DNA of 64,000 nucleotides from Candidatus Aminicenantes bacterium (GTDB lineage Bacteria; Acidobacteriota; Aminicenantia; Aminicenantales; Saccharicenantaceae), in contig JAPKZD010000003.1 of the NCBI GenBank assembly GCA_026393975.1, forward strand, positions 161,814 to 225,813. The letters run 5' to 3'. The notes beneath the pieces were generated by a model, which saw only the letters and a program-made list of their open reading frames with translations, did no database searches and was not told the DNA's origin. Of the stretch, positions 2,416 to 33,668 are shown one piece after another (the stretch's first letter is position 1; every line of letters begins with the position of its first letter). Both the position numbers and the translations under genes were made by a program.

Positions 2416-3807
2416 ATGCCCATCGTCCTCCCCGAGACGTTCGAAAGGCCCGCGGCCGATATCCCCGACGCGGAGCTCACCCCTCGGGAGATCGTGGCCG
2501 AGCTCGACAAGCACATCATCGGCCAAAAGGCGGCCAAGAAGGCCGTGGCCATCGCCCTGCGGAACCGTTTCCGCAGGCGCAAGCTGCCCCCCGCCCTGGC
2601 CGACGAGATCGCGCCCAAGAACATCCTCATGATCGGCCCCACCGGAGTCGGGAAAACGGAGATCAGCAGGCGGCTGGCTAAGTTGACCTCCTCGCCTTTC
2701 CTCAAGATCGAGGCCAGCAAGTTCACCGAGGTCGGCTATGTCGGCCGGGACGTCGAATCCATGATCCGGGACCTCGTCCGCATGTCCGTCGACATGGTCA
2801 AGCAGGAGAAGGTCGCCGAGATCGTGGAGAAAGCCAGGGCCAACGCCGAGGAAAAGCTCCTGGACATCCTCCTGTCTCCGCCCAAGAAGCGCGACGACGC
2901 GAACGGCGAGGAGGACGACTCGAAATTCCACGACACTCGGGAGAAATTGCGGGCCCAGCTCCGCGACGGGCTCCTCGAGGATCGGCCGGTCGACGTCGAG
3001 GTCAAGGAAAAGACAACGCCGCCCCTCGAGGTCGTTTCGAACTCCGGGGTCGAGGAGATCGGATTCCAGATCCAGGAGTTCCTCCCGGGCTTCCTGGGCG
3101 GCCGGATGAAGAGGCGGCGGATGAAGATCAAGGAAGCGCGGGAGGTCATCCTCGAGGAAGAGGAAAAGCGCCTCGTCGACATGGACCAGGTCTCCCGCCT
3201 GGCCATCGAGCGCGTCGAGCAGTCGGGCATCATCTTCCTCGACGAGGTCGACAAGATCGCCGGCCGGGAGTCCGGACACGGGCCCGACGTCAGCCGCGAG
3301 GGCGTCCAGCGCGACCTCCTGCCGATCATCGAGGGCACGACGGTCAACACGCGCTTCGGGCTCGTCCGGACCGACCACATCCTGTTCATCGGCGCCGGCG
3401 CCTTCCACGTCTCCAAGCCCTCCGACCTCATCCCCGAGCTCCAGGGCCGGTTCCCGATCCGCGTCGAGCTCACGCCGCTCGGCAAGGACGACTTCGTGCG
3501 CATCCTGACCGAGCCGCAGAACGCTTTGATCCGCCAGTACGAGGCCCTCATGGCCACGGAGGGTGTGACCGTCTCCTACACCCCGGATGCCGTCGACGAG
3601 ATCGCCGACGTTGCCGAAAAGGTCAACGCCGACGCCGAGAACATCGGGGCCCGCCGCCTCCACACCGTCGTCGAAAAAGTCATGGAGGACATCTCTTTCG
3701 CCGCCCCGGACATCGCCGAGAAGACCCTCCGGATCGACCGGGAGTACGTCCGGGAACACCTTAAAGACATCCTCGAAAACCAGGACCTGCGGCGTTTCAT
3801 CCTGTGA
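2416..3807 (+). CDS. hslU: ATP-dependent protease ATPase subunit HslU
   Basis: 463 aa. [20 protein letters not shown] and the Walker [11 protein letters not shown] are present. Confidence 0.95.
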
Positions 3808-5680: not shown

Positions 5681-6321
5681 AGCTGTTCCTGGATTCAGCC
5701 AACCTGGAGGAGATCCGCGAAGTCGCGAGCTGGGGGGTCCTCGACGGGGTGACGACCAACCCGTCGCTCTGCTCCAAGGAGAATGCGACCTTCGAAGACA
5801 ACATCCGCGCCATCTGCGCCGTCTGCGCCGGACCCGTCAGCGCCGAGTGCGTCTCGCTCCGCGCCGACGAGATCGTCGTTGAGGGCCGCGGCCTGGCCCG
5901 GATCGCGCCCAACGTCGCGGTCAAGATCCCGATCTGCCTGGAGGGCCTCAAGGCGACGAAAACGCTACACGCCGAGGGCGTCCCGGTCAACATGACCCTC
6001 ATCTTCTCCGCGAGCCAGGCCCTCCTCGCCGCCAAGGCGGGGGCCCGCTTCGTCAGTCCCTTCATCGGGCGCCTTGATGACGCCTCCGAGGACGGCATGG
6101 CCCTCATCGAGGAGATCGTCCAGATCTTCGAGAACTACCGCTTCGAAACCGAGGTCATCGTGGCCAGCGTCCGCCACCCGCGGCACGTCGTCGAGGCGGC
6201 CCTCGTCGGGGCCGACATCGCTACGGTCCCTTACGGAGTCATGGAAAAGCTGGTCAAGCATCCGCTGACGGACATCGGTATCGAACGGTTCCTCGCCGAC
6301 TGGAGGAAGGTTAGGAAGTGA
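5677..6321 (+). CDS. tal: Transaldolase / fructose-6-phosphate aldolase (TalC/Fsa type)
   Basis: 214 aa. [13 protein letters not shown]...GVTTNPSL...VKIP matches the short transaldolase family. The ATG overlaps the upstream TGA. Confidence 0.85.
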
Positions 6322-9300: not shown

Positions 9301-9812
9301 CCTACGTCAAGGACTACCGCGTGACCCTGAATATGAGCGGCCTGATCAGCCGTCTCAAGCCGGAGTTCTCCTCCTCGCCGCCCCTGCCGCCCGAGGAGAT
9401 AATGTCCCTGCTCGCCCTGGGCGAAGCCTTCAAGCGGACGTACTATTCCTATTCCGGCGACCGCAGCACGGCTATGAACACGGCCTCCCTCCTGACCTTT
9501 CAGATCGCCGACCAGGCCAGGAGAAGGACGTCCGGCGGCCTCTTCTCCTTGGACCGTTTCCGGATCGACCCCTACGTCCCGGAAAGCGCACCGGGCGGCA
9601 TCGCCGCCCGGATCACCGTGGGTAAGAAGATATCCCGGAACCTCATCTTCATCTATTCGACGATCCTGGCCAACTCCACCGTCATGGCCGAGATCGACGA
9701 AGTCCCGATCTTCCGCATGGAATGGGACATCAGCAGGAAGTTCTCGCTCGTCGGCGGGCGGGACGACCGGGGAAGGCTGAGTTTCGATGTCAAGTACCGT
9801 AAGCGCTTCTAG
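6318..9812 (+). CDS. tamB: TamB/AsmA-like translocation and assembly module protein
   Basis: 1164 aa. It has an N-terminal TM anchor, a long beta-rich body, and a DUF490-like C-terminus ending ..KYRKRF. The GTG start overlaps the tal stop (GTGA). Confidence 0.7.
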
Positions 9813-12576
9813 AGAACTCTGCCGGGGACGCGGTCCCGCCGCCGGGGCCGCCCTGGTGCTCGCGGCGGTCCTCGCTTTCGCCGGCGTCCGGACGGTCCGG
9901 GCCCAGGACGTCGGAGCCGCGGTCGTTGCCAAGGTCGCGGTCGAGGCCGACGGAAAGCCCGCCGAAAGGGGGCTCCTCGACCTCATCCCCATCAAGCCGG
10001 GTGATCCCTATTCGCCGCGGCTCGTGGACCAGGCCGTCAAACAGATCTTCCGCACGGGCCTCTTCGCCGACGTCAGGGTTCTGAAGAGCGGAGAGGACCG
10101 CGTCGAGCTCGTCTTCGCCCTCGTCAGGAACCTGTTCATCAACAACGTCTTTTTCCGCGGCTCGAAGGCTTCATCGGCGCGTCTGAGAGATAGTCTCGTC
10201 TCCCTTAGGCCGGGAGGCATCTTCCAGGAGGACCGATTGGCCGAAGCGGTCAAGGAGGTTCGGGAGGGGTTGAGGAAGGAGGGGTATTTCGGTGCCTCGG
10301 TCGACTGCGACGTCCAGCGGAAGGCCGGCGATACCACGGTCAACCTCGTCTTCCGGGCGTCCTCCTGGAAGACCTACCGCATCGGGGCGCTCGATATCGA
10401 GTGGAAGGCCGATATCCCCCAGCGGACACTTCTCGGGAAGATGAAAAGCCGGGTCGGCAAGGTTTACGTGCCCAGCCTCATCGAGGCCGACCTCGCGGCC
10501 TTGACCGCCGCCCTGGGCAAGCGGGGCTACCGGCGGGCCGAGGTCCGCCTGGCCGGCGAGGCTTTCGACGAGGAGAAGTCCCGAGTGGACCTCCGCGTCG
10601 AGATCTTGCCGCAGGAGAAGATCACTATCGTCGTCAACGGGGCGAAGGTCCCCTTGCGGCTCCTCGAACCGATTTGGGAGGAGCGGGTGTTCGAGCAGTG
10701 GGGGCTGGCCGAGGGCGAGGCCAGGGTCCTCAACCACGTCCGTAGGAAGGGCTACCTGTTTGCCTCCGTCAAGAGCCGGGTCGAAAGGGGGCCGGACGAG
10801 ATCCGTATCGTCCACGACGTCACCCCGGGCGGGAAATTCAACATCGAGGGCGTCGATTTCCGGGGCCTGACCGCGTTCACCGACCTGGACATGAAGAACC
10901 GGCTGGCCGTCAGTGCGGGAGTGCCTTTCTTCGGCCTCCTCGGTTACGACCGGCTGTTCTCCATCCCGCGGGAGGTCGAGGCCTTCTATAAGGAAAACGG
11001 CTTCGCCGACGTCCAGGTCCGGTTGGAACTGGTCAAGCAGAAGACGGGTGTCCGGGCCGTCTTCGACGTCCGGGAGGGGCCAAAGACGACCGTCGAAGCC
11101 ATCCGGCTCGAAGGGACGTCCCTTTTCCCCGCCGACGCCTTCATTCGCGAACTGGTCAGCCGGCAGGGCGGCCCGTACTATCCGCCCAATATCCAGAGCG
11201 ACGTCGGCCAGATCGAGAGCTTCTATCTCAACCGCGGTGTCCGCGGGACCGAGGTCGTCGCCCGCGTCGAGCCTGCGGCGGAGAACCGGGTTTCGCTCGT
11301 CTACGAGATCCAGGAAGGCGAAAAGGTCACCGTCCGGGACGTCTTCGTCACCGGGAACCGGACCACGAAAAACCGGGTCATCGGGAAGGAGTTGCGGATC
11401 GGGAAGGGCGACGAGGCCGACTATTCGAAGATTCAGGAGACGAAACGCCGGCTCGAACGCCTCGGCATCTTCTCCGAGGTCCGGGTGGATGAGGTCCGGA
11501 CCGGGCTCCGGGACGAGGTCGTGGTCGTCACCCTCCGGGAGGGGGAAAAGAACTACGCCGGCGCCGGCCTCGGGTTCGAATCCCTGACCCCGCTTAGCGG
11601 CTCTCTCGCCGCCTGGCCCAACGATTTCCGCCCCCGGGGCACGGCGGAGTACATCCGCAGCAACGTCTTCGGCCTCGGGGCGCAGGCCGGCCTCCTGGGC
11701 CAGCTCAGCACGGTCGAGAGACGGGCGATCGCCTCCTGGAACCAGCCCTACCTTTTCGGACTGGCCATGCCGACGACGCTGCTCGCCTGGGCCGAGAGGG
11801 AGGAGCGGGAGAGCTTCACCTACGACCGCCGCGGCGTCAGTCTGAGCACCGTCAAGTCTCTGAGCAAGGCCCGGCTCCTTCTGGTCTCATTGAGCTTGAC
11901 TCGGACGGCTCTGCCCAAGGTCGACCTTGAAAATCCCCCGCCCGATATTGACAGGCGCTTTCTCCCCTATTCGGCGGCGCTTGTTTCGTTCAGCCTGAGC
12001 TGGGAGAGACGGGACGACACGCTGAACCCCGAGAAGGGCTTCTTTTTCAGCGTTGCCGGCGAGTGGGGCGTTCCGGTCCTCGGGATGGAATCGGACTACC
12101 AGAAGCTCTTCTTCAAGTCCCAGATCTTTCGGCCTCTGCCCGGAGGTCTGAACCTCGGGCTGACGGCCAGGCTGGGGCTCGGGAACGGTCTGAGGCACCT
12201 GCCGGAGAGGTTCTTCGCCGGGGGGAGCAATACGTTCCGGGGGGAGGAGTTCGACATGCTCGGTCCCCTAGACACGACGACGCTCAAGCCTCTCGGGGGC
12301 GAGGCCGTCTTTCTGATCAACTCGGAGCTCGTCTTCGCCGTCGTTCCCTCGTGGAAGGAGCTCCGGCTGGCCGCCTTTCTCGACCTCGCCAACGTTTACA
12401 GCAGCCTGAGGCAATTCCGGCCTCTCGAACTCCAGGGGGCCGCTGGCGCGGGTATCCGCTACCGGACGCCGCTCGGACCTGTGCGCGTGGAGATCGCCTG
12501 GAAACTCTGGGGCATCGACGTTCAGGACAAGAAGGGGAAACCCCTCGTCTTCCTGACGATCGGAAATATCTTCTAG
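9787..12576 (+). CDS. bamA: Outer membrane protein assembly factor BamA (POTRA repeats plus Omp85 barrel)
   Basis: 929 aa. Signal peptide, repeated POTRA-like segments, and a C-terminal barrel ending ..TIGNIF with terminal Phe. The ATG at 9787 overlaps the tamB 3' end. A later start is possible. Confidence 0.85.
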   Translation: MSSTVSASRELCRGRGPAAGAALVLAAVLAFAGVRTVRAQDVGAAVVAKVAVEADGKPAERGLLDLIPIKPGDPYSPRLVDQAVKQIFRTGLFADVRVLKSGEDRVELVFALVRNLFINNVFFRGSKASSARLRDSLVSLRPGGIFQEDRLAEAVKEVREGLRKEGYFGASVDCDVQRKAGDTTVNLVFRASSWKTYRIGALDIEWKADIPQRTLLGKMKSRVGKVYVPSLIEADLAALTAALGKRGYRRAEVRLAGEAFDEEKSRVDLRVEILPQEKITIVVNGAKVPLRLLEPIWEERVFEQWGLAEGEARVLNHVRRKGYLFASVKSRVERGPDEIRIVHDVTPGGKFNIEGVDFRGLTAFTDLDMKNRLAVSAGVPFFGLLGYDRLFSIPREVEAFYKENGFADVQVRLELVKQKTGVRAVFDVREGPKTTVEAIRLEGTSLFPADAFIRELVSRQGGPYYPPNIQSDVGQIESFYLNRGVRGTEVVARVEPAAENRVSLVYEIQEGEKVTVRDVFVTGNRTTKNRVIGKELRIGKGDEADYSKIQETKRRLERLGIFSEVRVDEVRTGLRDEVVVVTLREGEKNYAGAGLGFESLTPLSGSLAAWPNDFRPRGTAEYIRSNVFGLGAQAGLLGQLSTVERRAIASWNQPYLFGLAMPTTLLAWAEREERESFTYDRRGVSLSTVKSLSKARLLLVSLSLTRTALPKVDLENPPPDIDRRFLPYSAALVSFSLSWERRDDTLNPEKGFFFSVAGEWGVPVLGMESDYQKLFFKSQIFRPLPGGLNLGLTARLGLGNGLRHLPERFFAGGSNTFRGEEFDMLGPLDTTTLKPLGGEAVFLINSELVFAVVPSWKELRLAAFLDLANVYSSLRQFRPLELQGAAGAGIRYRTPLGPVRVEIAWKLWGIDVQDKKGKPLVFLTIGNIF

Positions 12577-12589
12577 GGCGGGGACAACG

Positions 12590-13219
12590 ATGACGAAAAG
12601 GATCATGCTCCTGACATTTCTGGCGGCGGCCGCCGGCCTGGCCCAGACCGTCAACTGCCTGGTCGCGGTCGTCAACGGCGAGATCATCACTCTCCTCGAC
12701 GTCGAGGTCGCGGCCGAGTTCGGCCTGGGTCGCGAAGCCTCCGTCGAGACGGGGCGGGACCCGCGTCTCGCGGCCCTCGACGCGCTCATAGACAGGAAGG
12801 TCGTCCTGGACCTGGCCCAGGAGGCCCGGGGGATCGACCCGGAGGAGCTCGCCGCCGCGCTCGCCGACTTGCGCCGCGGGTTCGGCGAAAGCGCCTTCGC
12901 CTCGAAACTCGTCAAGTTCGGTCTCGCCGAGAAGGACCTCGAGCCCTATCTCCGGGACGGGCTCCTCTACGACAGGGCCCTGGCCCTGAGGTTCAGCGCC
13001 ACGATCCCCGTGTCGCTCACGGAGATCGAGAGGCATTACCGGGATAGCTACGTCCCGGAGCAGACCCGTCTCGGCAAGGCGGTCGAACCGCTCGAACGGG
13101 TCGCCGAGCGGATCGAATCGCTGCTGCGGGAGGAGAGGCGGACGAAGCAGACGGCCGACTGGGTCAGAGACCTGAGAAAGCGGGCTAATATCCAGCTCAA
13201 GAAAGACTGCCTGAAATGA
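12590..13219 (+). CDS. SurA N-terminal-domain-like periplasmic chaperone (no PPIase domain)
   Basis: 209 aa. Signal peptide, then LVAVVNGEIITLLDV.., typical of the SurA N-terminal chaperone domain. Sits directly after bamA. Confidence 0.55.
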   Translation: MTKRIMLLTFLAAAAGLAQTVNCLVAVVNGEIITLLDVEVAAEFGLGREASVETGRDPRLAALDALIDRKVVLDLAQEARGIDPEELAAALADLRRGFGESAFASKLVKFGLAEKDLEPYLRDGLLYDRALALRFSATIPVSLTEIERHYRDSYVPEQTRLGKAVEPLERVAERIESLLREERRTKQTADWVRDLRKRANIQLKKDCLK

Positions 13220-14145
13220 ACATCGCCTATCTTTTTCCGGGGCAGGGGTCCCAGGCCGTGGGCATGGGCAAGGACCTCTACGACAAGTCGCCCGAGGCCC
13301 GCGAGCTTTTTGAAACGGCCGACGAGGTCCTCGGCTTTCCCATTTCCAAGATATGTTTCGAGGGGCCCGAGGAGGAGCTCCGGCTGACCCGGAACACCCA
13401 GCCGGCCCTGCTCGTCGTCAGCACGGCCGCCTGCCGCCTGCTCGGCCGCGACCCCGCCGTGACCGCCGGCCACAGCCTGGGGGAATATTCGGCCCTCGTC
13501 GCCGCCGGCTGCCTTCGCTTCGAGGACGCCGTCCTTCTCGTCCACAAGAGAGGCCGCTACATGCAGGAAGCCGTTCCCGTCGGGATCGGGGGGATGGCCG
13601 CGATCCTCGGCGTTCCCGGCGACGTGGTCGAGGGACATCTCGCCGCCGTGCGCTCGGGCGTCGTCGAGATCGCCAACTGGAACAGCGACGACCAGATCGT
13701 CATCTCCGGCGAGAAGGCCGCTGTCGAGGAGGCCCTGGCCGCGATCAAGGCGCCGCGGTCGGTCATGCTGCCGGTCAGCGCGCCTTTCCATTCCCGGCTG
13801 ATGAAGCCGGCCGAAGAGAGGCTCGCCGCCGACCTCGACGCGGTCCCGTTCGCGGAGCCGCGCTTCCCGGTCATCACCAACGTCGACGCCCGGCTCATCC
13901 GGACGGCGGAGGAGGCTCGGGACGCCCTCAAACGGCAGGTCAGCCGCTCCGTCCTCTGGACAAAGTCCATGGGTCTTTTAAAAGAGATGGACATCGAAGT
14001 GTGCGTCGAGTGCGGGCCGGGGAAGGTCCTGGCCGGCCTGCTGAAGCGGGCGAGCCGGGGATGGTCCACGCCGCCGGCGGTCCACAACGTGGAGAACTGG
14101 GAAGGGCTGGAGAAGGCGAGGGCGGCCCTATTCGGCTTGCTGTGA
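13216..14145 (+). CDS. fabD: Malonyl CoA-ACP transacylase
   Basis: MNIAYLFPGQGSQAVGMG and the GHSLGEYSAL active-site motif. The ATG overlaps the upstream TGA. Confidence 0.9.
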   Translation: MNIAYLFPGQGSQAVGMGKDLYDKSPEARELFETADEVLGFPISKICFEGPEEELRLTRNTQPALLVVSTAACRLLGRDPAVTAGHSLGEYSALVAAGCLRFEDAVLLVHKRGRYMQEAVPVGIGGMAAILGVPGDVVEGHLAAVRSGVVEIANWNSDDQIVISGEKAAVEEALAAIKAPRSVMLPVSAPFHSRLMKPAEERLAADLDAVPFAEPRFPVITNVDARLIRTAEEARDALKRQVSRSVLWTKSMGLLKEMDIEVCVECGPGKVLAGLLKRASRGWSTPPAVHNVENWEGLEKARAALFGLL

Positions 14146-14673
14146 GATAACCCGGGGGCCGTAGCGCACGAAATATTCGACGGCCGAGGCGACGGCCAGG
14201 ACGAACACGAGCCAAAGCCCGACCTTGGCCGCGATGTAGAATTTCCCCAAATAGATCGGGCCCAGGACGAGGGCGCCGATGACCCAGGATTCACTGCCCA
14301 TCTTGGCCTTTCCGAAGGCCGAGGCGGGGATGTTGACCCCCTTGGACGAGGCCATGGCCCGGAAGCCGCTGACGGCGATCTCCCGCCCGATGATGACGAT
14401 GGCCGCCCAGGCCGGGACCCGGCCGAGCCCGACGAGGCAGATAAGGGCCGAGGCGATGAGGAGTTTGTCGGCCGTCGGGTCGAGGAGCTGGCCGAGGACG
14501 GTGACGAGCTCCTTCCGGCGGGCCAGCCAGCCGTCGAGCCAGTCCGTCAGGGATGCGAAGGTGAAGATGATCACGGCGACGAGGTCGTGGCCCTTGAAAT
14601 TCGTCAGCATCACGGCCACGAGGGCCGGGATGGCGAGAATCCTGGCCAGGCTGAGGTAATTGGGGACGTTCAC
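14128..14673 (-). CDS. pgsA: CDP-diacylglycerol--glycerol-3-phosphate 3-phosphatidyltransferase (CDP-alcohol phosphatidyltransferase)
   Basis: 181 aa. PNYLSLARI...D.LDG.LAR...G..LDP.AD motif. Convergent with fabD, overlapping by 18 bp. Confidence 0.8.
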   Translation of the reverse strand: MNVPNYLSLARILAIPALVAVMLTNFKGHDLVAVIIFTFASLTDWLDGWLARRKELVTVLGQLLDPTADKLLIASALICLVGLGRVPAWAAIVIIGREIAVSGFRAMASSKGVNIPASAFGKAKMGSESWVIGALVLGPIYLGKFYIAAKVGLWLVFVLAVASAVEYFVRYGPRVISQQAE

Positions 14674-20470: not shown

Positions 20471-20520
20471 CCGGCCGAGCGGCCGGCCCGCATGCCCTCG
20501 TATATAGGGGAATAAAAAAA

Positions 20521-20593
20521 TGGCTAGGGGCGGAATCGAACCGTCGACGCAAGGATTTTCAGTCCTTCGCTCTACCGACTGAGCTACCTAGCC
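20521..20593 (-). tRNA. tRNA-Phe (anticodon GAA), CCA not encoded
   Basis: The reverse complement folds as a cloverleaf. Acceptor GGCTAGG/CCTAGCC, D-arm GCTC/GAGC, anticodon stem AAGGA/TCCTT with loop CTGAAAA (GAA), T-loop TTCGATT. There is one A.C mismatch in the T-stem. A consensus promoter sits upstream on the minus strand. Confidence 0.85.
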
Positions 20594-20626
20594 ATTGACG
20601 TCCGGCCGGGCCGAACAGCCCAACCA

Positions 20627-20907: not shown

Positions 20908-20936
20908 TTGAAAAGGGGCGGTCGATATGTTATTCT
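20908..20936 (+). promoter_or_regulatory. Putative promoter of the DUF465 gene (TTGAAA-17-TATTCT) abutting repeat copy A
   Basis: TTGAAA at 20908-20913 and TATTCT at 20931-20936. GGAGGA RBS, then ATG 20959. Confidence 0.4.
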
Positions 20937-21188: not shown

Positions 21189-22217
21189 ATGGCCCAAGCC
21201 AAGTCCCGGAAACCCCGCCTGGCCCTGGTCGGCCCGGAATCGCTCAAAGGCAAGGAGATCCTCGGTGTCCTCAACGCCAAGAAGTTCCCGCTCGCCTCGT
21301 TCGAGTTCTACGACCCCGACGTCGAGCAGGAGTATAGCAAGCTCGGCCAGTTCCGGGACGAAGCGAAGGTCATCCATGCCCTGACTCCGGCATCGCTCGA
21401 AGGTCTGGACCTCGTTTTTCTGGCCGCGGATGCCAAGACCAACCTTCAATACGGGCGCCTGGCCGCCGATAAGGACTACCGGGCGGTCGACTTGGGCGAG
21501 ACCTTCAATGCCGACGCCGAGGTCCCGCTCATCGTCGCCGGCGTCAACGACGCCGCGATCCGGAAAACGAAACCGGCGCTCATCGCCAACCCGAACCCGG
21601 CGACGATCATGCTGTCGCATCTCCTTCATTCTTTACGGGCCGACTTCGGCGTCGCCAAAGCCATCGCCTTCGTTCTCGAACCGGTCTCGGCCTACGCGGA
21701 GGAGGGGATCCAGGAGCTGGCCGAGCAGAGCTACGCCCTCCTCGGCAGCACGGCTATGTGCAAAAAGGTCTTTCCCGACCAGGTCGCCTTCAACCTGCTG
21801 TCGGGGACGGCCAAGCCCGAAAAGAACGGCTTCTCGGCCCTGGAGAACCGGGTCCTCGCCGAGGTCCGGCGGGTCCTCGGCCCGGCGGATATTTCCCTCT
21901 CCCTGTCGATCGTCCTCGCCCCTGTCTTCCATACCTACGCGATCATGTCCTATGTCGAAATCGGGCGGGAGGCCTCGGCCCCCGACCTTGAAGCCTGTCT
22001 CAAGAAAAACGATATCTTCCGGTTCCCGGTCGCCGGCGACACCGGCGTCGTCTCCCCGGTGACGGCTGCCGGGAAAGACCGGATCTTCGTCGGTCCGATC
22101 AAGAAGGATACGGCCATCCCCCGGGGATTCTGGATATGGATCGTCGCCGACAACCTGACCGTGGGCTCGGCCCTCAACGCCTACGGCATCGCCCGGGCCC
22201 TGTTCGGGGAGCCTTGA
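21189..22217 (+). CDS. Aspartate-semialdehyde dehydrogenase (Asd) family paralog lacking the catalytic Cys; probable pseudoenzyme
   Basis: 342 aa. Collinear with Gram-positive-type Asd (LIANPNPATIMLS vs IIANPNCSTIQMV; GFWIWIVADNL vs GFHLWVVSDNL). The Cys nucleophile is Pro, the substrate Arg of the VRVP motif is Leu (IVLAPVFH), and the GxxGxxG is degenerate (GPESLKG). Confidence 0.75.
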   Translation: MAQAKSRKPRLALVGPESLKGKEILGVLNAKKFPLASFEFYDPDVEQEYSKLGQFRDEAKVIHALTPASLEGLDLVFLAADAKTNLQYGRLAADKDYRAVDLGETFNADAEVPLIVAGVNDAAIRKTKPALIANPNPATIMLSHLLHSLRADFGVAKAIAFVLEPVSAYAEEGIQELAEQSYALLGSTAMCKKVFPDQVAFNLLSGTAKPEKNGFSALENRVLAEVRRVLGPADISLSLSIVLAPVFHTYAIMSYVEIGREASAPDLEACLKKNDIFRFPVAGDTGVVSPVTAAGKDRIFVGPIKKDTAIPRGFWIWIVADNLTVGSALNAYGIARALFGEP

Positions 22218-22260: not shown

Positions 22261-23139
22261 ATGATACTAGGCATGACCGGCTTCGCCGAAAGGAATTTCG
22301 CCTCTCCCACCCTTCGGCTGAAGATCAGCATCAAGACCCTTAACCACCGCTTCTTCGACTGGTCGTACAAGGGCGTCCCCCTCGGCGAGGCCGAAAGCCG
22401 CCTCCGGGCCCTCTGCCAGAAACGGATCCGCCGGGGACGGGTGGAGGTCTTCCTGGAGCTCGTTTCGTTCAGCCCCGAAAGCTGGAATTTCACGTTGAAC
22501 GAAGGGCTCCTCGAGAAGATCCTGGCCGCCCTCGACCGCGTCTCCCGCCGGACGGGCCGCCGCCTTGAGATCTCCCTCGACGGCCTCTTCCGCGTACCCC
22601 AGCTCGTCGAGGTCGGCCGGAAGGCCTTCGGCCCCAAGGAAGCCGCCTTCCTCGGGCGGAGTTTTTCCAGGACCCTGGACGACGTTCTGGCGCTGCGACG
22701 CCGGGAAGGGAAGGAGACCGCCCGCCAGCTCCGGACCCACGTCGACGCCGTGCGGCGCTGTGTCGCCCGGATCGAAGGGCGGTTCAGGCGCCAGCCGGCC
22801 CTCCTCCAGGAGAAGCTCAAAAAGCGGCTGAGAGACCTCAACGGCGGCTCGCACGTCTCGGAAGGCAAGCTGGCCGAGGAAGCGTCTTTCCTGGCCCAGC
22901 GCTACGACCTGGCCGAAGAGATCGGCCGGCTCAAGACCCACCTTGACTCCTTCGAGGCGCTCATCTCGCCCAAGGTCGGCGACCCCGTCGGCAGACAGCT
23001 CGATTTTCTGGCCCAGGAGCTCAACCGCGAGGCCAACACCCTGGCCTCGAAATCCCAGGACATTCACATCACCCGGGAGAGCCTGGCCATCAAGAACGAG
23101 CTCGAGAGCATCCGTCAGCACGTCCAGAATATCGAATAG
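22261..23139 (+). CDS. yicC: YicC-family stress-induced protein
   Basis: 292 aa. MTGF..., YicC N-terminal and C-terminal DUF1732-like regions. Classic yicC-gmk neighbourhood. Confidence 0.8.
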   Translation: MILGMTGFAERNFASPTLRLKISIKTLNHRFFDWSYKGVPLGEAESRLRALCQKRIRRGRVEVFLELVSFSPESWNFTLNEGLLEKILAALDRVSRRTGRRLEISLDGLFRVPQLVEVGRKAFGPKEAAFLGRSFSRTLDDVLALRRREGKETARQLRTHVDAVRRCVARIEGRFRRQPALLQEKLKKRLRDLNGGSHVSEGKLAEEASFLAQRYDLAEEIGRLKTHLDSFEALISPKVGDPVGRQLDFLAQELNREANTLASKSQDIHITRESLAIKNELESIRQHVQNIE

Positions 23140-23152
23140 GGGAGCGAACGAC

Positions 23153-23761
23153 ATGCTCTTCGTCATCAGCGGGCCATCGGGTTGCGGCAAGTCGACCCTC
23201 ATCAGGAAAGTGCGGCGGAGCCTGGGCGATCTCGAATTCTCGGTCTCCCACACGACGCGGCCGCGCCGACCTTCGGAAAAGGACGGCGTCGATTACCATT
23301 TCGTCCCGGCCAAGACCTTCGAGCGAATGGTCCGGGAGAAGCGTTTCGTCGAATGGGCCCGCGTCCACGGCCATCTCTACGGCACATCCCGGGCCGAGAT
23401 CGAGCGAAAAGGCCGCCGCGGCGACGTCGTCCTCGACATCGACGTCCAGGGCGCCCGCCAGGTCCGTACGCGCTTCCCCGGGGCCGTCCACATCTTTATT
23501 ATGCCCCCGGTCGCCGGCGAGCTCCGGCGGAGGCTCGTGCGGCGGCGCGAGGACAGCCCGGAGGCCGTGGAACGGCGCCTGCGGAATGCCCGGGCCGAAA
23601 TCCGGGCTTACGACGAGTTCGACTACGTCGTCGTCAACGACGACCTCGCCAAGGCCGCGGCCGACCTCAAGGCCGTCATCGTCGCCTCTCGCCACAAGGC
23701 CTGTGTCATGGCCGAGAGGCTCAAACCCGTCCTGCGGAGCTTTCAGAAAGGCCGTCCATGA
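23153..23761 (+). CDS. gmk: Guanylate kinase
   Basis: ISGPSGCGKSTL P-loop. RBS AGGGGAG, then ATG 23153. Confidence 0.9.
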   Translation: MLFVISGPSGCGKSTLIRKVRRSLGDLEFSVSHTTRPRRPSEKDGVDYHFVPAKTFERMVREKRFVEWARVHGHLYGTSRAEIERKGRRGDVVLDIDVQGARQVRTRFPGAVHIFIMPPVAGELRRRLVRRREDSPEAVERRLRNARAEIRAYDEFDYVVVNDDLAKAAADLKAVIVASRHKACVMAERLKPVLRSFQKGRP

Positions 23762-24954
23762 AAAAAGTCGCCCTGGGGGTTTCTTCGTCCATCGGGATCT
23801 ACAAGGCCTGCGAGGTCGTCCGGGGATTCCAGAAAAACGGCGTCGAGGTCCAGGTCGTCATGACGCCCAACGCCGCCCGGCTCATCTCGCCGCTCCTCTT
23901 CAGCGGCCTGTCGGGGACGACGACCATCGTCGGCCTCTTCGAGGAGCCCATGGCCCGGGCCGTCGGCCATATTTCGCTGGCCAAGGAGATCGCTCTCCTC
24001 TGCGTCGCCCCGGCCACGGCCAACGTCATCGGCAAGTTCTCGGGCGGCGTCGCCGACGATTTTCTGTCGACGCTCTTCCTAGCGTCGCGCGCGCCGGTCC
24101 TCATCGCCCCGGCCATGAACGAGGCCATGTATCTCCACCCCCAGACCCAGGCCAACATTGCCCGCCTCCGGGCCCTGGGGGTCGAATTCGTCGAGCCGGA
24201 AAAGGGCTACCTCGCCTGCGGCGACGAAGGCTGGGGACGCCTGGCCGAGCCAGAAGCTATAGTCAAGGAAGGGTTGCGGCTCATCGGCCGGACGGCGAGC
24301 CTCAAGGGGAAAACAGTCCTGGTCACCGCGGGCCCGACCCGGGAGCCCCTCGACCCCGTCCGTTTCCTCTCCAACCCGTCGTCGGGAAAGATGGGTTATG
24401 CGCTGGCTCGGGAGGCGGTCGCCCGGGGGGCGGAGGTCGTCCTTGTCTCCGGCCCGACCTCGCTCGTCCCTCCGGCCGGGGCGCGGACAGAATTCGTCCA
24501 GACCGCGGCCGAGATGCAGGAGGCCTGCCTGCGGGCCTTCCCCAAGGCGGACATCGTGGTCATGGCCGCTGCCGTCTCCGACTTCCGCTTCAAAGAAGTC
24601 CGACCGCGCAAGGCCGCGAAGGCCGAGGTCGGTCCCGCCCTGGCCATCGAGAAGACGCCGGACGTCCTGGCCCTGCTCGGCGGGAAGAAGCGCCCGGGCC
24701 AGCTCCGCGTCGGTTTCGCCGCGGAGACGCATGACATCCTGGCCCACGCCCGGAAGAAGCTGGCGGCGAAGAACGCCGACCTCATGGTCGCCAATGCTGT
24801 CGGCGAGGGCAAGGGGTTCGGGACCGACGACAACGCCGTCCGGATCATCGCCGCCTCCGGGCCCGTCCAGGAGACGGGTCTCCTGAGCAAGCGGGAGACG
24901 AGCCGGGTCATTTTCGACCGCATCGAGGCCGCCCTTGAAAAAAAGCGCCGCTGA
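23758..24954 (+). CDS. coaBC: Bifunctional phosphopantothenoylcysteine decarboxylase / phosphopantothenate-cysteine ligase
   Basis: An N-terminal flavoprotein domain (GVSSSIGIYKA..) and a C-terminal CoaB domain (GKTVLVTAGPTREPLDPVRFLSNPSSGKMG). ATGA overlap with gmk. Confidence 0.9.
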   Translation: MKKVALGVSSSIGIYKACEVVRGFQKNGVEVQVVMTPNAARLISPLLFSGLSGTTTIVGLFEEPMARAVGHISLAKEIALLCVAPATANVIGKFSGGVADDFLSTLFLASRAPVLIAPAMNEAMYLHPQTQANIARLRALGVEFVEPEKGYLACGDEGWGRLAEPEAIVKEGLRLIGRTASLKGKTVLVTAGPTREPLDPVRFLSNPSSGKMGYALAREAVARGAEVVLVSGPTSLVPPAGARTEFVQTAAEMQEACLRAFPKADIVVMAAAVSDFRFKEVRPRKAAKAEVGPALAIEKTPDVLALLGGKKRPGQLRVGFAAETHDILAHARKKLAAKNADLMVANAVGEGKGFGTDDNAVRIIAASGPVQETGLLSKRETSRVIFDRIEAALEKKRR

Positions 24955-28619: not shown

Positions 28620-30917
28620 TTACTTGATGATCCTGGGCGTGATGAAGATCAGCAGCTCCCGGCTCTGCTTCGTTCGGGCGAAGTTCTTGAAGAGGGAGCC
28701 CAGTATCGGGATCTGGTGGAGGAAGGGCACCCGCTCGCGGGTGACCGAGTCCTCCGTCCGGTAGATGCCGCCAATGACCGTCGTGCCGCCGTCGGGGACC
28801 ATGACCGTCGTCTTGGCGCTCTGCATCGTGATCGGCGGGATGCCGTTGACGAGGTTGGCGAAGTCGGCTGCGTTGTTCTGGATCTCGATGGTCATGATGA
28901 TCGTCCCCTCGGCCGTGATCTGCGGCGTCGCTCTCAGCTCGAGGGCGGCGTTGACGTACCGGGTCGTAACGGTGAAGTTGGCCACCGTCTGGACAGGGAT
29001 CTGGCGGCCCTGGATGATCTCGGCCTGCTGGTTGTTCTGGGTGACCACGGACGGCCGGGAGATGATCTTCCCGTCGCCGCTCGTCTCTAGGGCGGACAGG
29101 GCGACGTCGACCCGGAACGTGTCGAGGACGTTAGCGAAGGAGAAGCCCAGGGCCGTGCTGAAGGCCGGGGCGGGCAGGTTGACGGCGTAGCCGCCGAGGG
29201 GCCCGCCGATGCCCTTGGTCACTTCACCCTGGGGAATCACGGCGCCGTTGACAAGGACGCTGTTGGGGAACTGGAGGGAGGTCGGGTTCCCGTGGAACGG
29301 GTCGGCGATGCCCTTGAAGCCCCACTGGATGCCCAGGTTGCGGACGAAGGTGGTCGTGGCCTCGACGACGCGGGCCTCGATGGAGACCTGGGGCGTCGGC
29401 GTGTCGACGACGGTGATGAGCTTTTCGAGGAGGTCGAGCTTGTCCCGGACCTCGGAGACGATCAGCGTGTTGGTCCGGTCGTCGACGATCATCTCGCCGC
29501 GCGTCGAGATCTTGGAACGGAGGAGGGCGGCGACGTCCTTGGCCTTCGAGTAGGACAGGGTGATCGTCTTGACCATGACCGGCCCGGCCAGCTCCTTGCT
29601 CTCCGTGAGCCGCCGCTGGTCCTCCTCCTCGCGGGTCAGGACGCTGACGGGTGCGATGCGCAGGATGTTGCCCTCGATCGTCTTGCCCATCTTGTTCTGC
29701 TTGAGGATGATATCCAGGACCTGGTCCCAGGGGACGAGCTGGAGGTTGACGGTGACGGTGCCCCGGACGTCCGGGTCGAAGACGACGTTCAGGCCGGCGA
29801 ACTCGGCTAGGTAGAGGATGACGTCCCTGAGGTCGGAGTCCTTAAGCTTGAGGCTGATGATGTCTCCGGAGTATTTTTCCTCTTCGCCGGAGATCGTTTT
29901 AGGCTTGAATTTTCCCTGCTGGTCCTGGGCCGCGGCGGCCTTGGGATCCTGCGTCGGAGCGGCGACTTTGCGCGGCGCGAAGAGGGGTTCGGGGGTTATG
30001 GTCTTGGCTTCGGCCTTCGGTTCGATCTTCGGGGCGGCCGTCGGCTCGGACTTGGTCGGGGTCGGCACGGGGGCGGGGGCCGGCGGCGGAGCCGGTTGGA
30101 CGACGCTCACCGCGACCGCGGCGGCCGGGTAGAACGAAACGACAAGTCCGTCCGTCCGGGAATCCATGGCGTAGAGCCCCGCTTCCTTAAGGTCGAAGAC
30201 CATGCGGGTGATCGGCCGCGGAGCGGCGCCCTGGAACTGGGCGACCCGAACCCTCTGGACCGTGGACCGCGGGTCGTTGATCGGCCAGGCATCGGACTTG
30301 GCGGTAAGGACGGTGTCGAAGAGGTCGACGACCAGCCGGGGCGGGTTCTCAAGGGCGAACACCTGGGTGACGGCCGGCCCGGTCAAGTTGGCCTTGACGG
30401 AAACGCTCTCCGCGCCGACGGTCGTATCCAGCTTGTTCAAGAGGATCTCACTCTTGGCCTTGCGGTCGAGCTCAGACTGGGTGGCGGCGTCGATGAGGTA
30501 GCTCCCCTGGGCCCTCTGGATCCGGTTGAGCTCGACGACCGTCCGGCCGGTCTCGGCGATGACGCGGGCCGGAACGCGCTCGCTCAGCCGGATGAGGAGG
30601 CGCAGGTCCTGAGTTCCGGATTTCTGGACTTGGATATCCCGGATGAACGCGGCTTCGGAGGAGGGGACGATCGGCGCCGAGGCCGTCTGGGCGTCGGCGA
30701 TGTCAAGGACGAGAGTCTGGGGGGATTCGGCCAGGTAATACGCCCTCTGGACGTAAAGTAAGCCGTCGGTTTCCATGACCAGTTTCGTCGCCAGCGTGCC
30801 CGGCTGGACCTGGATCTTGCTGATATTTACGGCGGGGCCCGGCCCCTGGGCGTGCACGACGGAGAAAAGGAGTACGCACAGGCCGGTGATTACGGCTGGC
30901 AGGATTCTCTTTTTCAT
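28620..30917 (-). CDS. pilQ: Type IV pilus secretin PilQ (N-terminal AMIN-like domains)
   Basis: 765 aa. Signal peptide, a Pro/Ala-rich linker, and a secretin C-domain ending ..LLIFITPRIIK. Confidence 0.9.
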   Translation of the reverse strand: MKKRILPAVITGLCVLLFSVVHAQGPGPAVNISKIQVQPGTLATKLVMETDGLLYVQRAYYLAESPQTLVLDIADAQTASAPIVPSSEAAFIRDIQVQKSGTQDLRLLIRLSERVPARVIAETGRTVVELNRIQRAQGSYLIDAATQSELDRKAKSEILLNKLDTTVGAESVSVKANLTGPAVTQVFALENPPRLVVDLFDTVLTAKSDAWPINDPRSTVQRVRVAQFQGAAPRPITRMVFDLKEAGLYAMDSRTDGLVVSFYPAAAVAVSVVQPAPPPAPAPVPTPTKSEPTAAPKIEPKAEAKTITPEPLFAPRKVAAPTQDPKAAAAQDQQGKFKPKTISGEEEKYSGDIISLKLKDSDLRDVILYLAEFAGLNVVFDPDVRGTVTVNLQLVPWDQVLDIILKQNKMGKTIEGNILRIAPVSVLTREEEDQRRLTESKELAGPVMVKTITLSYSKAKDVAALLRSKISTRGEMIVDDRTNTLIVSEVRDKLDLLEKLITVVDTPTPQVSIEARVVEATTTFVRNLGIQWGFKGIADPFHGNPTSLQFPNSVLVNGAVIPQGEVTKGIGGPLGGYAVNLPAPAFSTALGFSFANVLDTFRVDVALSALETSGDGKIISRPSVVTQNNQQAEIIQGRQIPVQTVANFTVTTRYVNAALELRATPQITAEGTIIMTIEIQNNAADFANLVNGIPPITMQSAKTTVMVPDGGTTVIGGIYRTEDSVTRERVPFLHQIPILGSLFKNFARTKQSRELLIFITPRIIK

Positions 30918-30918
30918 G

Positions 30919-31371
30919 TTACAGCTCCTCCGTGATTTCTTTGATGATGTCTCTCGGCCTTATGAGGGGGATTCCCCGCTCGTGGGTTTTCCGCAAGACC
31001 ACCTGCGATTCGGTGATGGATAGGACGTACCCGTCCGTGAACTTATCGCCGACGTTGACGAACATGGGGAAGCCTTGGGGCATGCCGATCATGGCGGTGT
31101 AGGTTTTTTTATTCTTGACGATCCCGAAGAGGATGAGGTCGTCGATGAACACCTGGGGTTCGCCGATGGCCGTCTTCTCCCGCATGTCGCGCCCGGTCAG
31201 GAGGTCCTTGAAGGGGTCACGGCGGCCTTCAGGATTGTAGGTGAACCCGGTCGGCGGTGCGACCGTTTGCGCGGCCTCGGGCGGCGGCGCGGCGGTCGTC
31301 TCCTGGGCGAGGAGAGGGATAAGTCCCGTCAAACTGACGACGAGGAGGAGGATGAAGGCTGATTTTTTCAT
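30919..31371 (-). CDS. pilP: Type IV pilus pilotin/assembly protein PilP
   Basis: MKKSAFILLLVVSLTG.. lipoprotein-type signal. LILFGIVKNKKTYTAMIGMPQGFPMFVNVGDKF..GYVLSITESQVVL is a PilP beta-domain. Confidence 0.75.
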   Translation of the reverse strand: MKKSAFILLLVVSLTGLIPLLAQETTAAPPPEAAQTVAPPTGFTYNPEGRRDPFKDLLTGRDMREKTAIGEPQVFIDDLILFGIVKNKKTYTAMIGMPQGFPMFVNVGDKFTDGYVLSITESQVVLRKTHERGIPLIRPRDIIKEITEEL

Positions 31372-31381
31372 CGTATTGGCC

Positions 31382-31948
31382 TCACTTTTTTTTGGCCGGG
31401 GTGGCGACCGGCGCCTCGGCAAAGAAGTAGGTCTTGGCCGTCCAGTCGGCGGAGACCGTGTTCAGCTCCGTCTGGGGGGTCAGGGACTTGATGGTGAAGT
31501 TTTCGATCGTGAACACCCGGGCGAACTTGCTCAGGTGGTCGAAGAACAGTCCCAGGTTGTGGTAGCTGCCCGAGACCTGGATGGGGATAGGCCACTCGGA
31601 GTAGAACTCTTTGTCGATCTCGGCCCCCGGCGCGAAGCTGAGGACGTCGAGGCGGGAATCATAGGCCAGGGTCTGGATCTGCCGCAGGATGTCCGCCGTT
31701 TCCTTCCTCTGGGGGATGTTGACCTCCAGGGTCTTGAGCTTGGTGGTCATGGTGGCGATGTCGGCTACGATCTTGTCCAGTTCCCGCTTCTTCTGCTTCA
31801 GGTTCTGGACCTCCTGCTCGATCCTGACCCGTTCGGCCTTCAGCGCCGTGAGCTTGGTATTCTGAGGTTTGAAGTAAAAAAGGAAGGCCAGGGCGAAGAG
31901 GAGGGCGGCGAAGAGGACGTATCCGTACCAAGGCCAGTTTTTCATCAC
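31382..31948 (-). CDS. pilO: Type IV pilus assembly protein PilO
   Basis: N-terminal TM helix, coiled coil, PilO C-domain. Confidence 0.8.
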   Translation of the reverse strand: MMKNWPWYGYVLFAALLFALAFLFYFKPQNTKLTALKAERVRIEQEVQNLKQKKRELDKIVADIATMTTKLKTLEVNIPQRKETADILRQIQTLAYDSRLDVLSFAPGAEIDKEFYSEWPIPIQVSGSYHNLGLFFDHLSKFARVFTIENFTIKSLTPQTELNTVSADWTAKTYFFAEAPVATPAKKK

Positions 31949-32586
31949 TTCTCCCCTTTCTTGTCAGCGGGTTTCGCGGCGGGTTCCGCTTTCGCGGGAG
32001 CGGGAACGGGCTCCGGCTTCTTCTCGATCACGGCCCGGAGGGCGAACTCCAGGAACTGGTCCCCTTGGCCGGTTCTCTGTGTCGAAGAGACGAGGTTGAC
32101 GTTCATGATTTGGGGGCTGGCCTCGAGGCTGGAGATATAGTCCGCGACGAGGTTGTTCGACAGGGCCCGTCCCTTGATCTGGATGCCCTTGTCGTCGTAG
32201 ATCACTTCGCTCAGCCAGACCCAATCCGGGAGGCGGCGGCTCAGCTCGTCCATGAGGCGGGGGGCCAGGTCGCGCTGGGCGTTGAGGCTCTCGATGAGGG
32301 TGATCTTCCTGTCCAGGGATTCCCGGGCTTGCCGCTGCTCCTCGAGCTTGGCCTCGACGTACTGGAGCTGGCTTTTCTCTTGGCGGGCGAGACCGAGGAG
32401 TGTGTTTTCCCTGTCGAACGCCTTTTGCTGGAAGAAATAGAACAGGCCGAGCCCGATGACGAGGAGGAGGAAGACCAGGTTCCCGAGGCTCGTGCCCTTC
32501 TTGCTTCCTTCCTCGGATATCCCGGGGACGGCGACCGTTTCCCTGATGTCCTTGGTTTCCGGCTTGAGGAGGTTGATCCGTATCAT
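31945..32586 (-). CDS. pilN: Type IV pilus assembly protein PilN
   Basis: MIRINLLKPE.. then a TM helix and coiled coil. Overlaps the pilO start by 4 nt. Confidence 0.8.
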   Translation of the reverse strand: MIRINLLKPETKDIRETVAVPGISEEGSKKGTSLGNLVFLLLVIGLGLFYFFQQKAFDRENTLLGLARQEKSQLQYVEAKLEEQRQARESLDRKITLIESLNAQRDLAPRLMDELSRRLPDWVWLSEVIYDDKGIQIKGRALSNNLVADYISSLEASPQIMNVNLVSSTQRTGQGDQFLEFALRAVIEKKPEPVPAPAKAEPAAKPADKKGEK

Positions 32587-32588
32587 GG

Positions 32589-33668
32589 TTACTTCTCCAC
32601 CTTTCGGGTTGCCAAACCGACGGCGACACCGAAGATCGGCGCCATGTCGCTGAAGTAGACCGCGTCGAACTTCTTGTCATCGACCCGGATATTGCGGAAG
32701 GGATTGAGGATCTCCGTCTTGATCCTGAACTTGGTCTCGAAGGCGCTGACCATGCTCATGACGTTGGCCAGTCCGCCGCTGAGGACGATCTGATCGATCT
32801 TCCTCTCCCGCTTCTCCGAAGCCTCGTAGAAGGAGAAGGTCTTCTCGATCTCGTCGAGGAGGTCGCGGACGTTCATCGACAGGAGCGTCGCGAATTGTTC
32901 CGGGGTCGTCGATTTCCCGGGGATGCCCTTGAGGAGCTTTTCCGCCTCTTCGAACGAGATGCTGAGCTCCTTGCGGATGTTCTCGGTGAAGAAAAAGCCG
33001 CCCAGGGACAGGTCACGGAAGAGCTGGGGCGTGCCCCGCTCGACGATAACGACGTTGGTGATGTTGGCCCCGACGTTGATGAGGGCGATCGTCTTTTCGG
33101 CAAAGATTTCGGGGTAGCTGACTTCGAGGGCGTTCTGGAGGGCGAAGACGTCGACCTCGATGCTCTGGAGGTTCTTTCGGGCCTGGTTGATGATATTGCT
33201 GTAGTTGGCGATCTTGTCTTTCTTGGCGGCTACGAGCAGGATGTCGAGGTTTTTCTCGTCGGTCGAGCGCGCCGGCTTGAGGATGGCGTAATCGACGTTC
33301 GTCTCCTCGTAAGGGTAGGGGATGTTGTGTTTCGCCTCCCAGATGATGGACTCGGCTAGTTCCTGCTTTTCCATGACCGGGAGGGAGATCTTTTTGATGA
33401 TGACGGAGTTGCCGGAGATGGAGATGGCCACGTCCTTGTTGGAGATCTTGTTCTCATCGAAGACCAGGCGGATGGTCTCGACGACGGCGGCCGAGTCGAT
33501 GATGGTCCCCTCCACGATGGCGTCGTGAGGCAACGGCTCGTAACCGATTTTCACCACCTCGTAGGCCTCTTCCGCGCCCTTCTTCCGGGGGCGGAGTTCG
33601 ACGGCCTTGATGGAATAGGAACCGATATCCAGCCCGACCACGCTTTTTTCTCGAGAGATACCGAACAT
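32589..33668 (-). CDS. pilM: Type IV pilus assembly ATPase-fold protein PilM
   Basis: VGLDIGSYSIKAVEL.. actin-like fold. It is 12 nt downstream of the coaD stop. Confidence 0.9.
   Translation of the reverse strand: MFGISREKSVVGLDIGSYSIKAVELRPRKKGAEEAYEVVKIGYEPLPHDAIVEGTIIDSAAVVETIRLVFDENKISNKDVAISISGNSVIIKKISLPVMEKQELAESIIWEAKHNIPYPYEETNVDYAILKPARSTDEKNLDILLVAAKKDKIANYSNIINQARKNLQSIEVDVFALQNALEVSYPEIFAEKTIALINVGANITNVVIVERGTPQLFRDLSLGGFFFTENIRKELSISFEEAEKLLKGIPGKSTTPEQFATLLSMNVRDLLDEIEKTFSFYEASEKRERKIDQIVLSGGLANVMSMVSAFETKFRIKTEILNPFRNIRVDDKKFDAVYFSDMAPIFGVAVGLATRKVEK

Follow-up and report, generated by a model that had tools for sequence, protein, structure and literature searches.

Can a gene whose product has lost the catalytic residues of aspartate-semialdehyde dehydrogenase (Asd) still be a working gene, and what would such a protein do? 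The question is raised by a 64,000-nucleotide (nt) stretch of DNA, hereafter the window, from a Candidatus Aminicenantes bacterium (phylum Acidobacteriota; GenBank assembly GCA_026393975.1, contig JAPKZD010000003.1, positions 161,814 to 225,813), in which one gene, here named asdL, encodes an Asd-like protein (AsdL) with a Pro in place of the nucleophilic Cys. We found that this gene is intact and under selection, that AsdL falls into a separate clade of Cys-less Asd homologs, and that in distant relatives asdL directly follows the genes for phosphatidylethanolamine (PE) synthesis. Coordinates of the gene, its altered motifs and its neighbors are given in Table 1.

AsdL has the two-domain architecture of Asd, with PF01118 at residues 11–126 and PF02774 at residues 149–324, both above the Pfam cut-off. 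In HMMER searches against PDB sequences, residues 10–338 aligned end to end with solved Asd structures. The best matches were V. cholerae Asd2 (2qz9/2r00, E-value 4e-28), a P. aeruginosa protein described as a "USG-1 homolog" (2hjs), the T. thermophilus protein (2yv3), M. tuberculosis 3tz6 and S. pneumoniae 2gyy. An AlphaFold2 model built from a 94-sequence alignment had a predicted local distance difference test (pLDDT) value of 92.5 and a predicted template modeling (pTM) score of 0.92, and Foldseek comparison of this model with solved Asd structures gave template modeling (TM) scores of 0.84–0.89. As modeled, the assignment of AsdL to the Asd fold is secure. The NCBIfam asd models also matched the protein end to end, yet all scores were far below the cut-offs: 172 versus 223 for PRK14874, 162.6 versus 324.2 for TIGR01296, 19.5 versus 301 for TIGR00978, 138.5 versus 284 for PRK05671 and 112.4 versus 273 for PRK08040. 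We take the last two to be USG-type models. NCBI lists a protein identical to AsdL under the name "Asd/ArgC dimerization domain-containing protein" [Candidatus Aminicenantes bacterium].

Residues were mapped by three HMMER pairwise alignments and two independent MAFFT alignments with many true Asd sequences, all of which agreed. Pro137 (CCG, 21597–21599) takes the place of the Cys nucleophile, Leu243 (21915–21917) replaces the substrate-binding Arg of the VRVP motif, whose surrounding segment changes from V-R-V-P-V-x-x-G-H to V-L-A-P-V-F-H-T-Y, and the dinucleotide-binding loop GxxGxxG (GATGAVG in Asd) reads GPESLKG. A preliminary description of this locus, made from the sequence alone, had proposed the end-to-end relationship to Asd as well as these three replacements, and all of them are borne out by the alignments. 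It had also stated that the general-base His is retained, which proved incorrect: the corresponding column is occupied by Tyr250 (TAC, 21936–21938), and the His seen earlier is His248 (CAT, 21930–21932), located two residues upstream of this column in a gap-free segment. With the His mis-assigned by two residues, the predicted active site is more degenerate than originally supposed. Further losses, absent from that description, involved the phosphate-binding Arg of the F-R-x-D motif, which is Asn107 in AsdL (F-N-A-D), and the active-site Gln, which is replaced by Glu164 (Y-Q-S-V-S-G-A-G in Asd, L-E-P-V-S-A-Y-A in AsdL). In addition, the PEVN motif of Asd is AGVN.

AsdL contains only two Cys residues (positions 191 and 270), both non-conserved, and no column of the 94-sequence clade alignment contained Cys in more than 30% of sequences. 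These observations exclude a catalytic Cys shifted by an insertion or deletion, and an alternative nucleophile at a displaced position was therefore rejected. Judged by these residues, Asd chemistry should be impossible for AsdL, and the thioacyl intermediate could not form.

The loss of Cys is common to the whole family. None of the 120 closest cluster representatives (66–100% identity, nearly all 340–348 amino acids long) had the catalytic Cys, the motif being ANP[HN]P[AS][TA]I or a near variant of it, and Cys was missing in more than 200 homologs. Because all 120 closest homologs also lack Cys, a sequencing error at NPNPAT can be excluded; besides, a change from CCG to TGY requires at least two substitutions. 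When 89 family genes taken from the retrieved loci were translated, none contained an internal stop. The ratio of nonsynonymous to synonymous substitution rates (dN/dS) was 0.19–0.44 for 12 orthologs from other Aminicenantes genomes (NG86 method, with dS probably saturated). In the same genome pairs, amino acid identity was 64–75% for AsdL versus 74–84% for YicC, Gmk and CoaBC, so that conservation of AsdL is only slightly below that of the neighboring housekeeping genes. The intact reading frame and purifying selection rule out a pseudogene. Thus, the question raised in the preliminary description of whether relatives share the Cys replacement is answered for the 120 closest of them, and its view of a non-catalytic or re-purposed homolog rather than a decaying pseudogene is supported by the intact frames, dN/dS values, missing catalytic residues and sub-cut-off model scores. 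The preliminary description also predicted a separate bona fide asd elsewhere in the genome; no second Asd homolog was detected by tblastn, which was run on the 64-kb window only. In three loci from long-read (MFD) Aminicenantes metagenome-assembled genomes (MAGs; L019, L041 and L089), asdL or the neighboring ABC gene was split into several open reading frame (ORF) pieces, which look more like assembly indel errors than real pseudogenes.

A phmmer search over 1.84 billion cluster representatives yielded 4292 matches, 94 of which had E-values below 1e-30. The nearest relatives (28–56% identity) were all Cys-less and shared one active-site pattern, in which P-H-P takes the place of N-C; we refer to this group as the PHP clade. 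Its loop has the pattern G-x-x-[ST]-L-x-G-K-E instead of GxxGxxG. In the 94-sequence alignment, G15 was present in 74 sequences, [ST]18 in 83, L19 in 77 and G21 in 85; several subclades have N, D, Q, E or H instead of the first Gly, and the middle position always holds S, T or N in place of Gly. Other clade traits are an acidic residue after β2, a position 107 that is never Arg, x-P-[AV]-S-E-x-G for Q-S-V-S-G-A-G, a Q/L-A-P-V-F-H segment and W-x-W-x-x-x-D-N-L. The most conserved columns of the alignment were Pro165 and Phe247 (both 94/94), Ser167 and Asp321 (both 93/94), followed by Trp317 (92/94), His248 and Asp101 (both 91/94), Pro135 (84/94) and Pro137 (82/94). Asp42, at the end of β2, appears to have been gained: 75 of the 94 sequences have Asp and 7 have Glu at this position, where true Asd proteins have Ala or Ser. 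Position 136 is His in 72 sequences and Asn in 10, including the AsdL of the window (Asn136); position 250 is Tyr in 55 and His in 29, and Q, L, R and H all occur at position 243. The window AsdL itself carries the clade signature (PNP, P165, F247, H248, W315, W317 and DNL). Pro135/137, Pro165, Ser167, Phe247 and His248 are located at the former Asd active site, and their conservation indicates that it is still constrained.

In an unrooted neighbor-joining tree of 157 sequences, which included AsdL, E. coli Usg, further degenerate Asd-like proteins and 54 sequences in which the Cys/Gln/Arg/His set is complete, a 60-member clade containing AsdL was recovered in 58 of 58 bootstraps. It contained no catalytically complete sequence, and E. 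coli Usg and 41 other degenerate Asd-like proteins were placed outside it. On the sequence data, the PHP clade is a distinct, ancient and monophyletic lineage of inactivated Asd, separate from USG-1. Compared with Asd of type B/II (TIGR01296, PRK14874; structures 2qz9/2r00, 2gyy, 2yv3 and 8juo), AsdL has the same two-domain fold and length and shares the motifs G(I/M)(D/E)EL..Q, AFN and DNL...A.NA. However, identity is only ~25–30%, the Cys, His, Gln, both Arg residues and GxxGxxG are replaced, and the genomic context is different. Inactivated Asd paralogs are already known, and the PHP clade is an undescribed one: we found no description of it or its gene context in the searchable literature, nor relevant literature on DUF465, on psd/pssA together with a semialdehyde dehydrogenase, or on PE in Aminicenantes. 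The linkage to pssA and psd described below is likewise previously unreported.

Gene context of asdL was strongly conserved. A 69%-identical ortholog on a 1-Mb contig had the same DUF465-asdL-yicC-gmk-coaBC-udg-priA order as the window, the genes between clpB and DUF465 being different, and the asdL-yicC-gmk-coaBC order is kept in Aminicenantes. In more distant clade members (28–39% identity), examined on long contigs with pre-computed gene calls, the order psd (PF02666)-pssA (PF01066)-asdL was found in all seven cases; asdL begins right next to the preceding stop or overlaps it, DUF465 was located upstream in four, and in two an ABC_membrane + ABC_tran gene, yicC, remA, gmk and coaBC followed downstream of asdL. 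These pssA neighbors scored 116–146 bits with TIGR00473 (cut-off 107) and the psd neighbors 194–206 with NF003685 (cut-off 183). The best match of the ABC neighbor was MsbA, below the cut-off (514–563 versus 602).

A scan with a degenerate pattern, which covered one genome per GTDB species, returned 90 loci, 85 of them with asdL. The pattern demands P-H, P-x-F-H, W-x-W and GAC-AAC (D-N) and is biased to GC-rich genomes. Because it forces these residues, scan loci were not counted as evidence for the signature, for which only HMMER-derived alignments were used; asdL start codons in the scan loci are estimates. Three arrangements were distinguished. In Type A (45 loci and one more without DNA), pssA is located directly upstream of asdL, and the estimated distance from the pssA stop to the asdL start was negative in 26 of the 45 loci and no more than 32 nt in 40. 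Hosts belonged to Acidobacteriota and a few other phyla and comprised Terriglobia (Acidobacteriaceae, Bryobacterales, Sulfotelmatobacter, Acidiferrales and the cultured strain AB60), Thermoanaerobaculia, Polarisedimenticolia and a Cryosericum MAG. Terriglobus albidus DSM 26559 also has asdL, in a locus whose upstream side is cut off (L080). Type B has the order DUF465-asdL-MsbA-like ABC-yicC-gmk-coaBC, and Type C, which includes the window, DUF465-asdL-yicC-gmk-coaBC; hosts of both were Aminicenantes or Saccharicenans, plus MAGs labeled Eubacteriales or Desulfaltia. DUF465 was directly upstream of asdL (−8 to +25 nt) in ~34 loci besides that of the window, and only three loci with upstream room had no detectable DUF465. 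This YdcH-like coiled-coil protein is a near-constant companion of asdL, encoded either directly upstream or ahead of psd-pssA-asdL. In loci L007 and L010, the psd-pssA-asdL and yicC-gmk-coaBC clusters are contiguous. The simplest history would be an ancestral DUF465-psd-pssA-asdL-(msbA-like)-yicC-gmk-coaBC cluster, from which Aminicenantes lost psd-pssA and the window lineage also the ABC gene. Ten loci from "uncultured Eubacteriales" MAGs (L037, L039, L047, L057, L067, L078, L082, L083, L091 and L101) had the Aminicenantes-type DUF465-asdL-(ABC)-yicC order, and a MAG labeled "Bordetella parapertussis" (L064) had a contig with Acidobacteria-type psd-pssA-asdL; wrong taxonomic labels or incorrectly binned contigs are the probable cause. 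A link of AsdL to coenzyme A or nucleotide metabolism via gmk and coaBC was considered and rejected, these genes being missing beside most Type A asdL genes.

The dead active site, together with the position of the gene directly behind the PE genes in relatives, suggests that AsdL probably serves lipid rather than amino acid synthesis. We tentatively favor the view, at a little short of an even chance, that AsdL is an accessory or regulatory, non-Asd protein of aminophospholipid (phosphatidylserine (PS) to PE) synthesis or export. It would be an accessory subunit, soluble and probably dimeric, that is non-catalytic or binds a ligand and works with the membrane enzymes of PS and PE synthesis, PssA and Psd, and with the small DUF465 protein; for example, binding of a small-molecule signal in the remodeled former active site may control how PssA and Psd work or assemble. 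Both the non-catalytic mode and the partnership with PssA, Psd and DUF465, be it physical or functional, are inferred. The degenerate glycine loop disfavors canonical NAD(P) binding and thus favors a non-enzymatic role. The Rossmann-fold proteins NmrA and Rex are dinucleotide or metabolite sensors in which catalysis was lost. Like AsdL, such sensors keep a dehydrogenase scaffold without its catalytic residues, which by analogy makes a regulatory route plausible, although they have no sequence relationship to AsdL and have a canonical glycine-rich loop whereas that of AsdL is degenerate. A more specific proposal, possible but doubtful, is that AsdL is a third component of PS/PE synthesis in Acidobacteriota and allied phyla, in which the remodeled pocket (His248, Pro165, Ser167 and Asp42) would bind a nucleotide or head-group-like ligand and which, with DUF465, would control or complete the PssA-Psd step, possibly including hand-off to the MsbA-like flippase.

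Several points weigh against an accessory role in lipid synthesis. The partnership with PssA, Psd and DUF465 is read from gene linkage, and a conserved gene order can last without a functional link. In the window lineage, psd-pssA is not adjacent and yet AsdL is under selection, so its function cannot hang strictly on linkage in cis. Conservation of His248 and Asp42 is as expected of a working nucleotide or ligand site and fits a re-purposed enzyme equally well. Finally, the GC bias of the genome scan and the residues that its pattern forces make it unusable for counting those residues.

The main rival explanation is a re-purposed NAD-type enzyme or sensor, kept alive by Asp42 and His248. In its enzymatic form, which we consider rather unlikely, AsdL would be an oxidoreductase or other catalyst built around His248 (with His136 and His250 in most members), using NAD(H) rather than NADP(H), with serine, a head-group intermediate or another compound of the aminophospholipid pathway as its substrate. 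Among the clade-specific residues, the most conserved are indeed located in the former active site, Asp42 was gained at the end of β2, where an acidic residue is a hallmark of NAD-type adenosine-ribose binding in Rossmann folds, and DN(L) and NA motifs are still found close to the C-terminus; moreover, the wider GAPDH-like fold includes Cys-independent dehydrogenases with a His base (DapB, Gfo/Idh/MocA). On the other hand, the middle Gly of the loop is never Gly and the first is replaced in several subclades, His136 and His250 are not kept in the window AsdL (Asn136 and Tyr250), position 243 is variable, no substrate could be named, and the psd-pssA pathway requires no redox step. Alternatively, the linkage may reflect hitch-hiking, with a non-catalytic AsdL having a non-lipid role (with DUF465 only, or with the YicC RNase/gmk/coaBC cluster) and its position behind pssA being a frozen accident of an ancestral super-operon. 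The yicC-gmk-coaBC-priA cluster is a widely conserved one of functionally unrelated genes, the Aminicenantes asdL persists beside DUF465 and yicC without psd-pssA, and the contiguous clusters in L007 and L010 are also consistent with this idea. Nevertheless, the overlap or abutment of pssA and asdL is kept at ~28–35% AsdL identity, whereas different genes lie downstream of asdL at almost all Type A loci, a pattern typical of co-translated partners, and we regard hitch-hiking as unlikely.

That AsdL is nothing more than a USG-1 (Usg) protein sharing the function of that family is very improbable. Usg of E. coli (b2319) and P. aeruginosa (2hjs) resemble AsdL in having lost the Cys, the Gln and both Arg residues, and 2hjs was among the best PDB matches. 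According to a 2025 review (PMC12041015), the USG branch lost all catalytic residues and is "non-functional" as an aldehyde dehydrogenase; the review mentions inactive sequences of the USG and Asd2 branches and says that no further information on them is available. However, in E. coli Usg both the GATGAVG loop and the His of the catalytic column (...FYGHA) are preserved, where AsdL has GPESLKG and ...FHTYA, and 2hjs keeps the loop (GATGSVG) with no His in the catalytic column (...FFGDS). E. coli Usg is also nearer to true Asd (40% identity) than to AsdL (28%) and was placed outside the 58/58 clade; therefore, AsdL is not a USG-1 member. Scores with PRK08040 and PRK05671 were below cut-off as well, and usg of E. 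coli MG1655 is part of pdxB-usg-truA, a context unrelated to that of asdL in which neither DUF465 nor pssA is adjacent. By these comparisons, AsdL appears to have arisen independently of the USG-1 paralog. In one Type A locus (L004), asdL is followed by a gene (9087–10043) of the D-2-hydroxyacid dehydrogenase family, the family of pdxB, which precedes usg in E. coli; seen at one AsdL locus only, this likeness may be a coincidence. Least credible of all are a real Asd with an unusual mechanism and a pseudogene or sequencing artifact. The former would agree with the JGI product name "aspartate-semialdehyde dehydrogenase" and with the lack of another asd within the window, but such an enzyme would have to work with a replaced cofactor loop and with substitutions at five independent positions for catalysis or binding; the latter is contradicted by the family-wide nature of the change, the intact ORF, purifying selection and the two or more substitutions that separate CCG from TGY.

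The findings on AsdL bear on biology, evolution and annotation. The main membrane lipid of bacteria is regarded as the product of two enzymes, PssA and Psd, and a third, translationally coupled gene across an abundant soil phylum points to an unrecognized regulatory or assembly step. The linkage to asdL also places DUF465, a domain of unknown function, in a definite setting with a partner that can be tested. In addition, AsdL offers a clean case of a scaffold that lost five catalytic determinants while its former active site is still strongly constrained. Members of the Cys-less family are named "aspartate-semialdehyde dehydrogenase" by JGI/IMG and "Asd/ArgC dimerization domain-containing protein" or "hypothetical protein" by NCBI. 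As a result of the JGI name, metabolic reconstructions from Aminicenantes and Acidobacteria MAGs may count a false Asd step in the synthesis of lysine, diaminopimelate, threonine and methionine.

Table 1. Position of asdL, its altered motifs and neighboring features in the 64,000-nt window
Feature	Position	Strand	Basis or remark
asdL (AsdL)	21189..22217	+	ATG to TGA ORF, 342 amino acids; Pfam PF01118 + PF02774
Degenerate dinucleotide loop GPESLKG (GxxGxxG, GATGAVG, in Asd)	21231..21251	+	alignments
NPNPAT (NPNCST in Asd)	21588..21605	+	sequence read directly and alignments
LAPVFHTY segment	21915..21938	+	alignments, column counts
Sigma-70-like promoter match TTGAAA-17-TATTCT with TG, ahead of DUF465	20908..20936	+	consensus match only
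DUF465 small protein, 73 amino acids	20959..21180	+	Pfam PF04325, 26.6 bits versus cut-off 25
yicC (YicC-like endoribonuclease)	22261..23139	+	Pfam PF03755 + PF08340
gmk (guanylate kinase)	23153..23761	+	Pfam PF00625
coaBC	23758..24954	+	Pfam PF02441 + PF04127
tRNA-Phe (GAA), between clpB and the DUF465-asdL cluster	20520..20594	-	Rfam
TamB-like	6318..9812		upstream envelope/lipid biogenesis neighborhood (6318–14673)
BamA/Omp85 with POTRA repeats	9787..12576		envelope/lipid neighborhood
209-amino acid ORF, family unassigned	12590..13219		envelope/lipid neighborhood
FabD-like acyltransferase	13216..14145		envelope/lipid neighborhood
pgsA, sole CDP-alcohol phosphatidyltransferase in the window	14131..14673	-	TIGR00560, 142.9 versus cut-off 109.1
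Type IV pilus cluster pilM-pilN-pilO-pilP-like-pilQ	28620..33668	-	pilQ is a secretin with AMIN + STN
HslV/HslU-like pair	1888..3807	+	
UvrD-type helicase fused to a PD-(D/E)XK nuclease domain	36996..39926	+	976 amino acids, AddA-like

Within the window, asdL is part of the gene order mutS, clpB, tRNA-Phe (on the minus strand), DUF465, asdL, yicC, gmk, coaBC, udg and priA. The DUF465 stop is 8 nt ahead of the asdL start, and yicC begins 44 nt after the last base of the asdL stop, a spacing that had been given correctly before. The scan that found the promoter match ahead of DUF465 detected no terminator-like site on the plus strand between DUF465, asdL and yicC. A riboswitch or other noncoding RNA was sought in the 366-nt region upstream, where Rfam gave only the tRNA-Phe. 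No psd was present in the 64-kb window. The interval between clpB and DUF465 is variable among Aminicenantes genomes; for example, Toluene_X, HicAB and DUF5128 genes are located there in the orthologous locus L003. The pilMNOPQ cluster follows priA on the other strand, in the same position as in L003. The HslV/HslU-like pair and the fused helicase-nuclease appear in the window as ordinary housekeeping genes.

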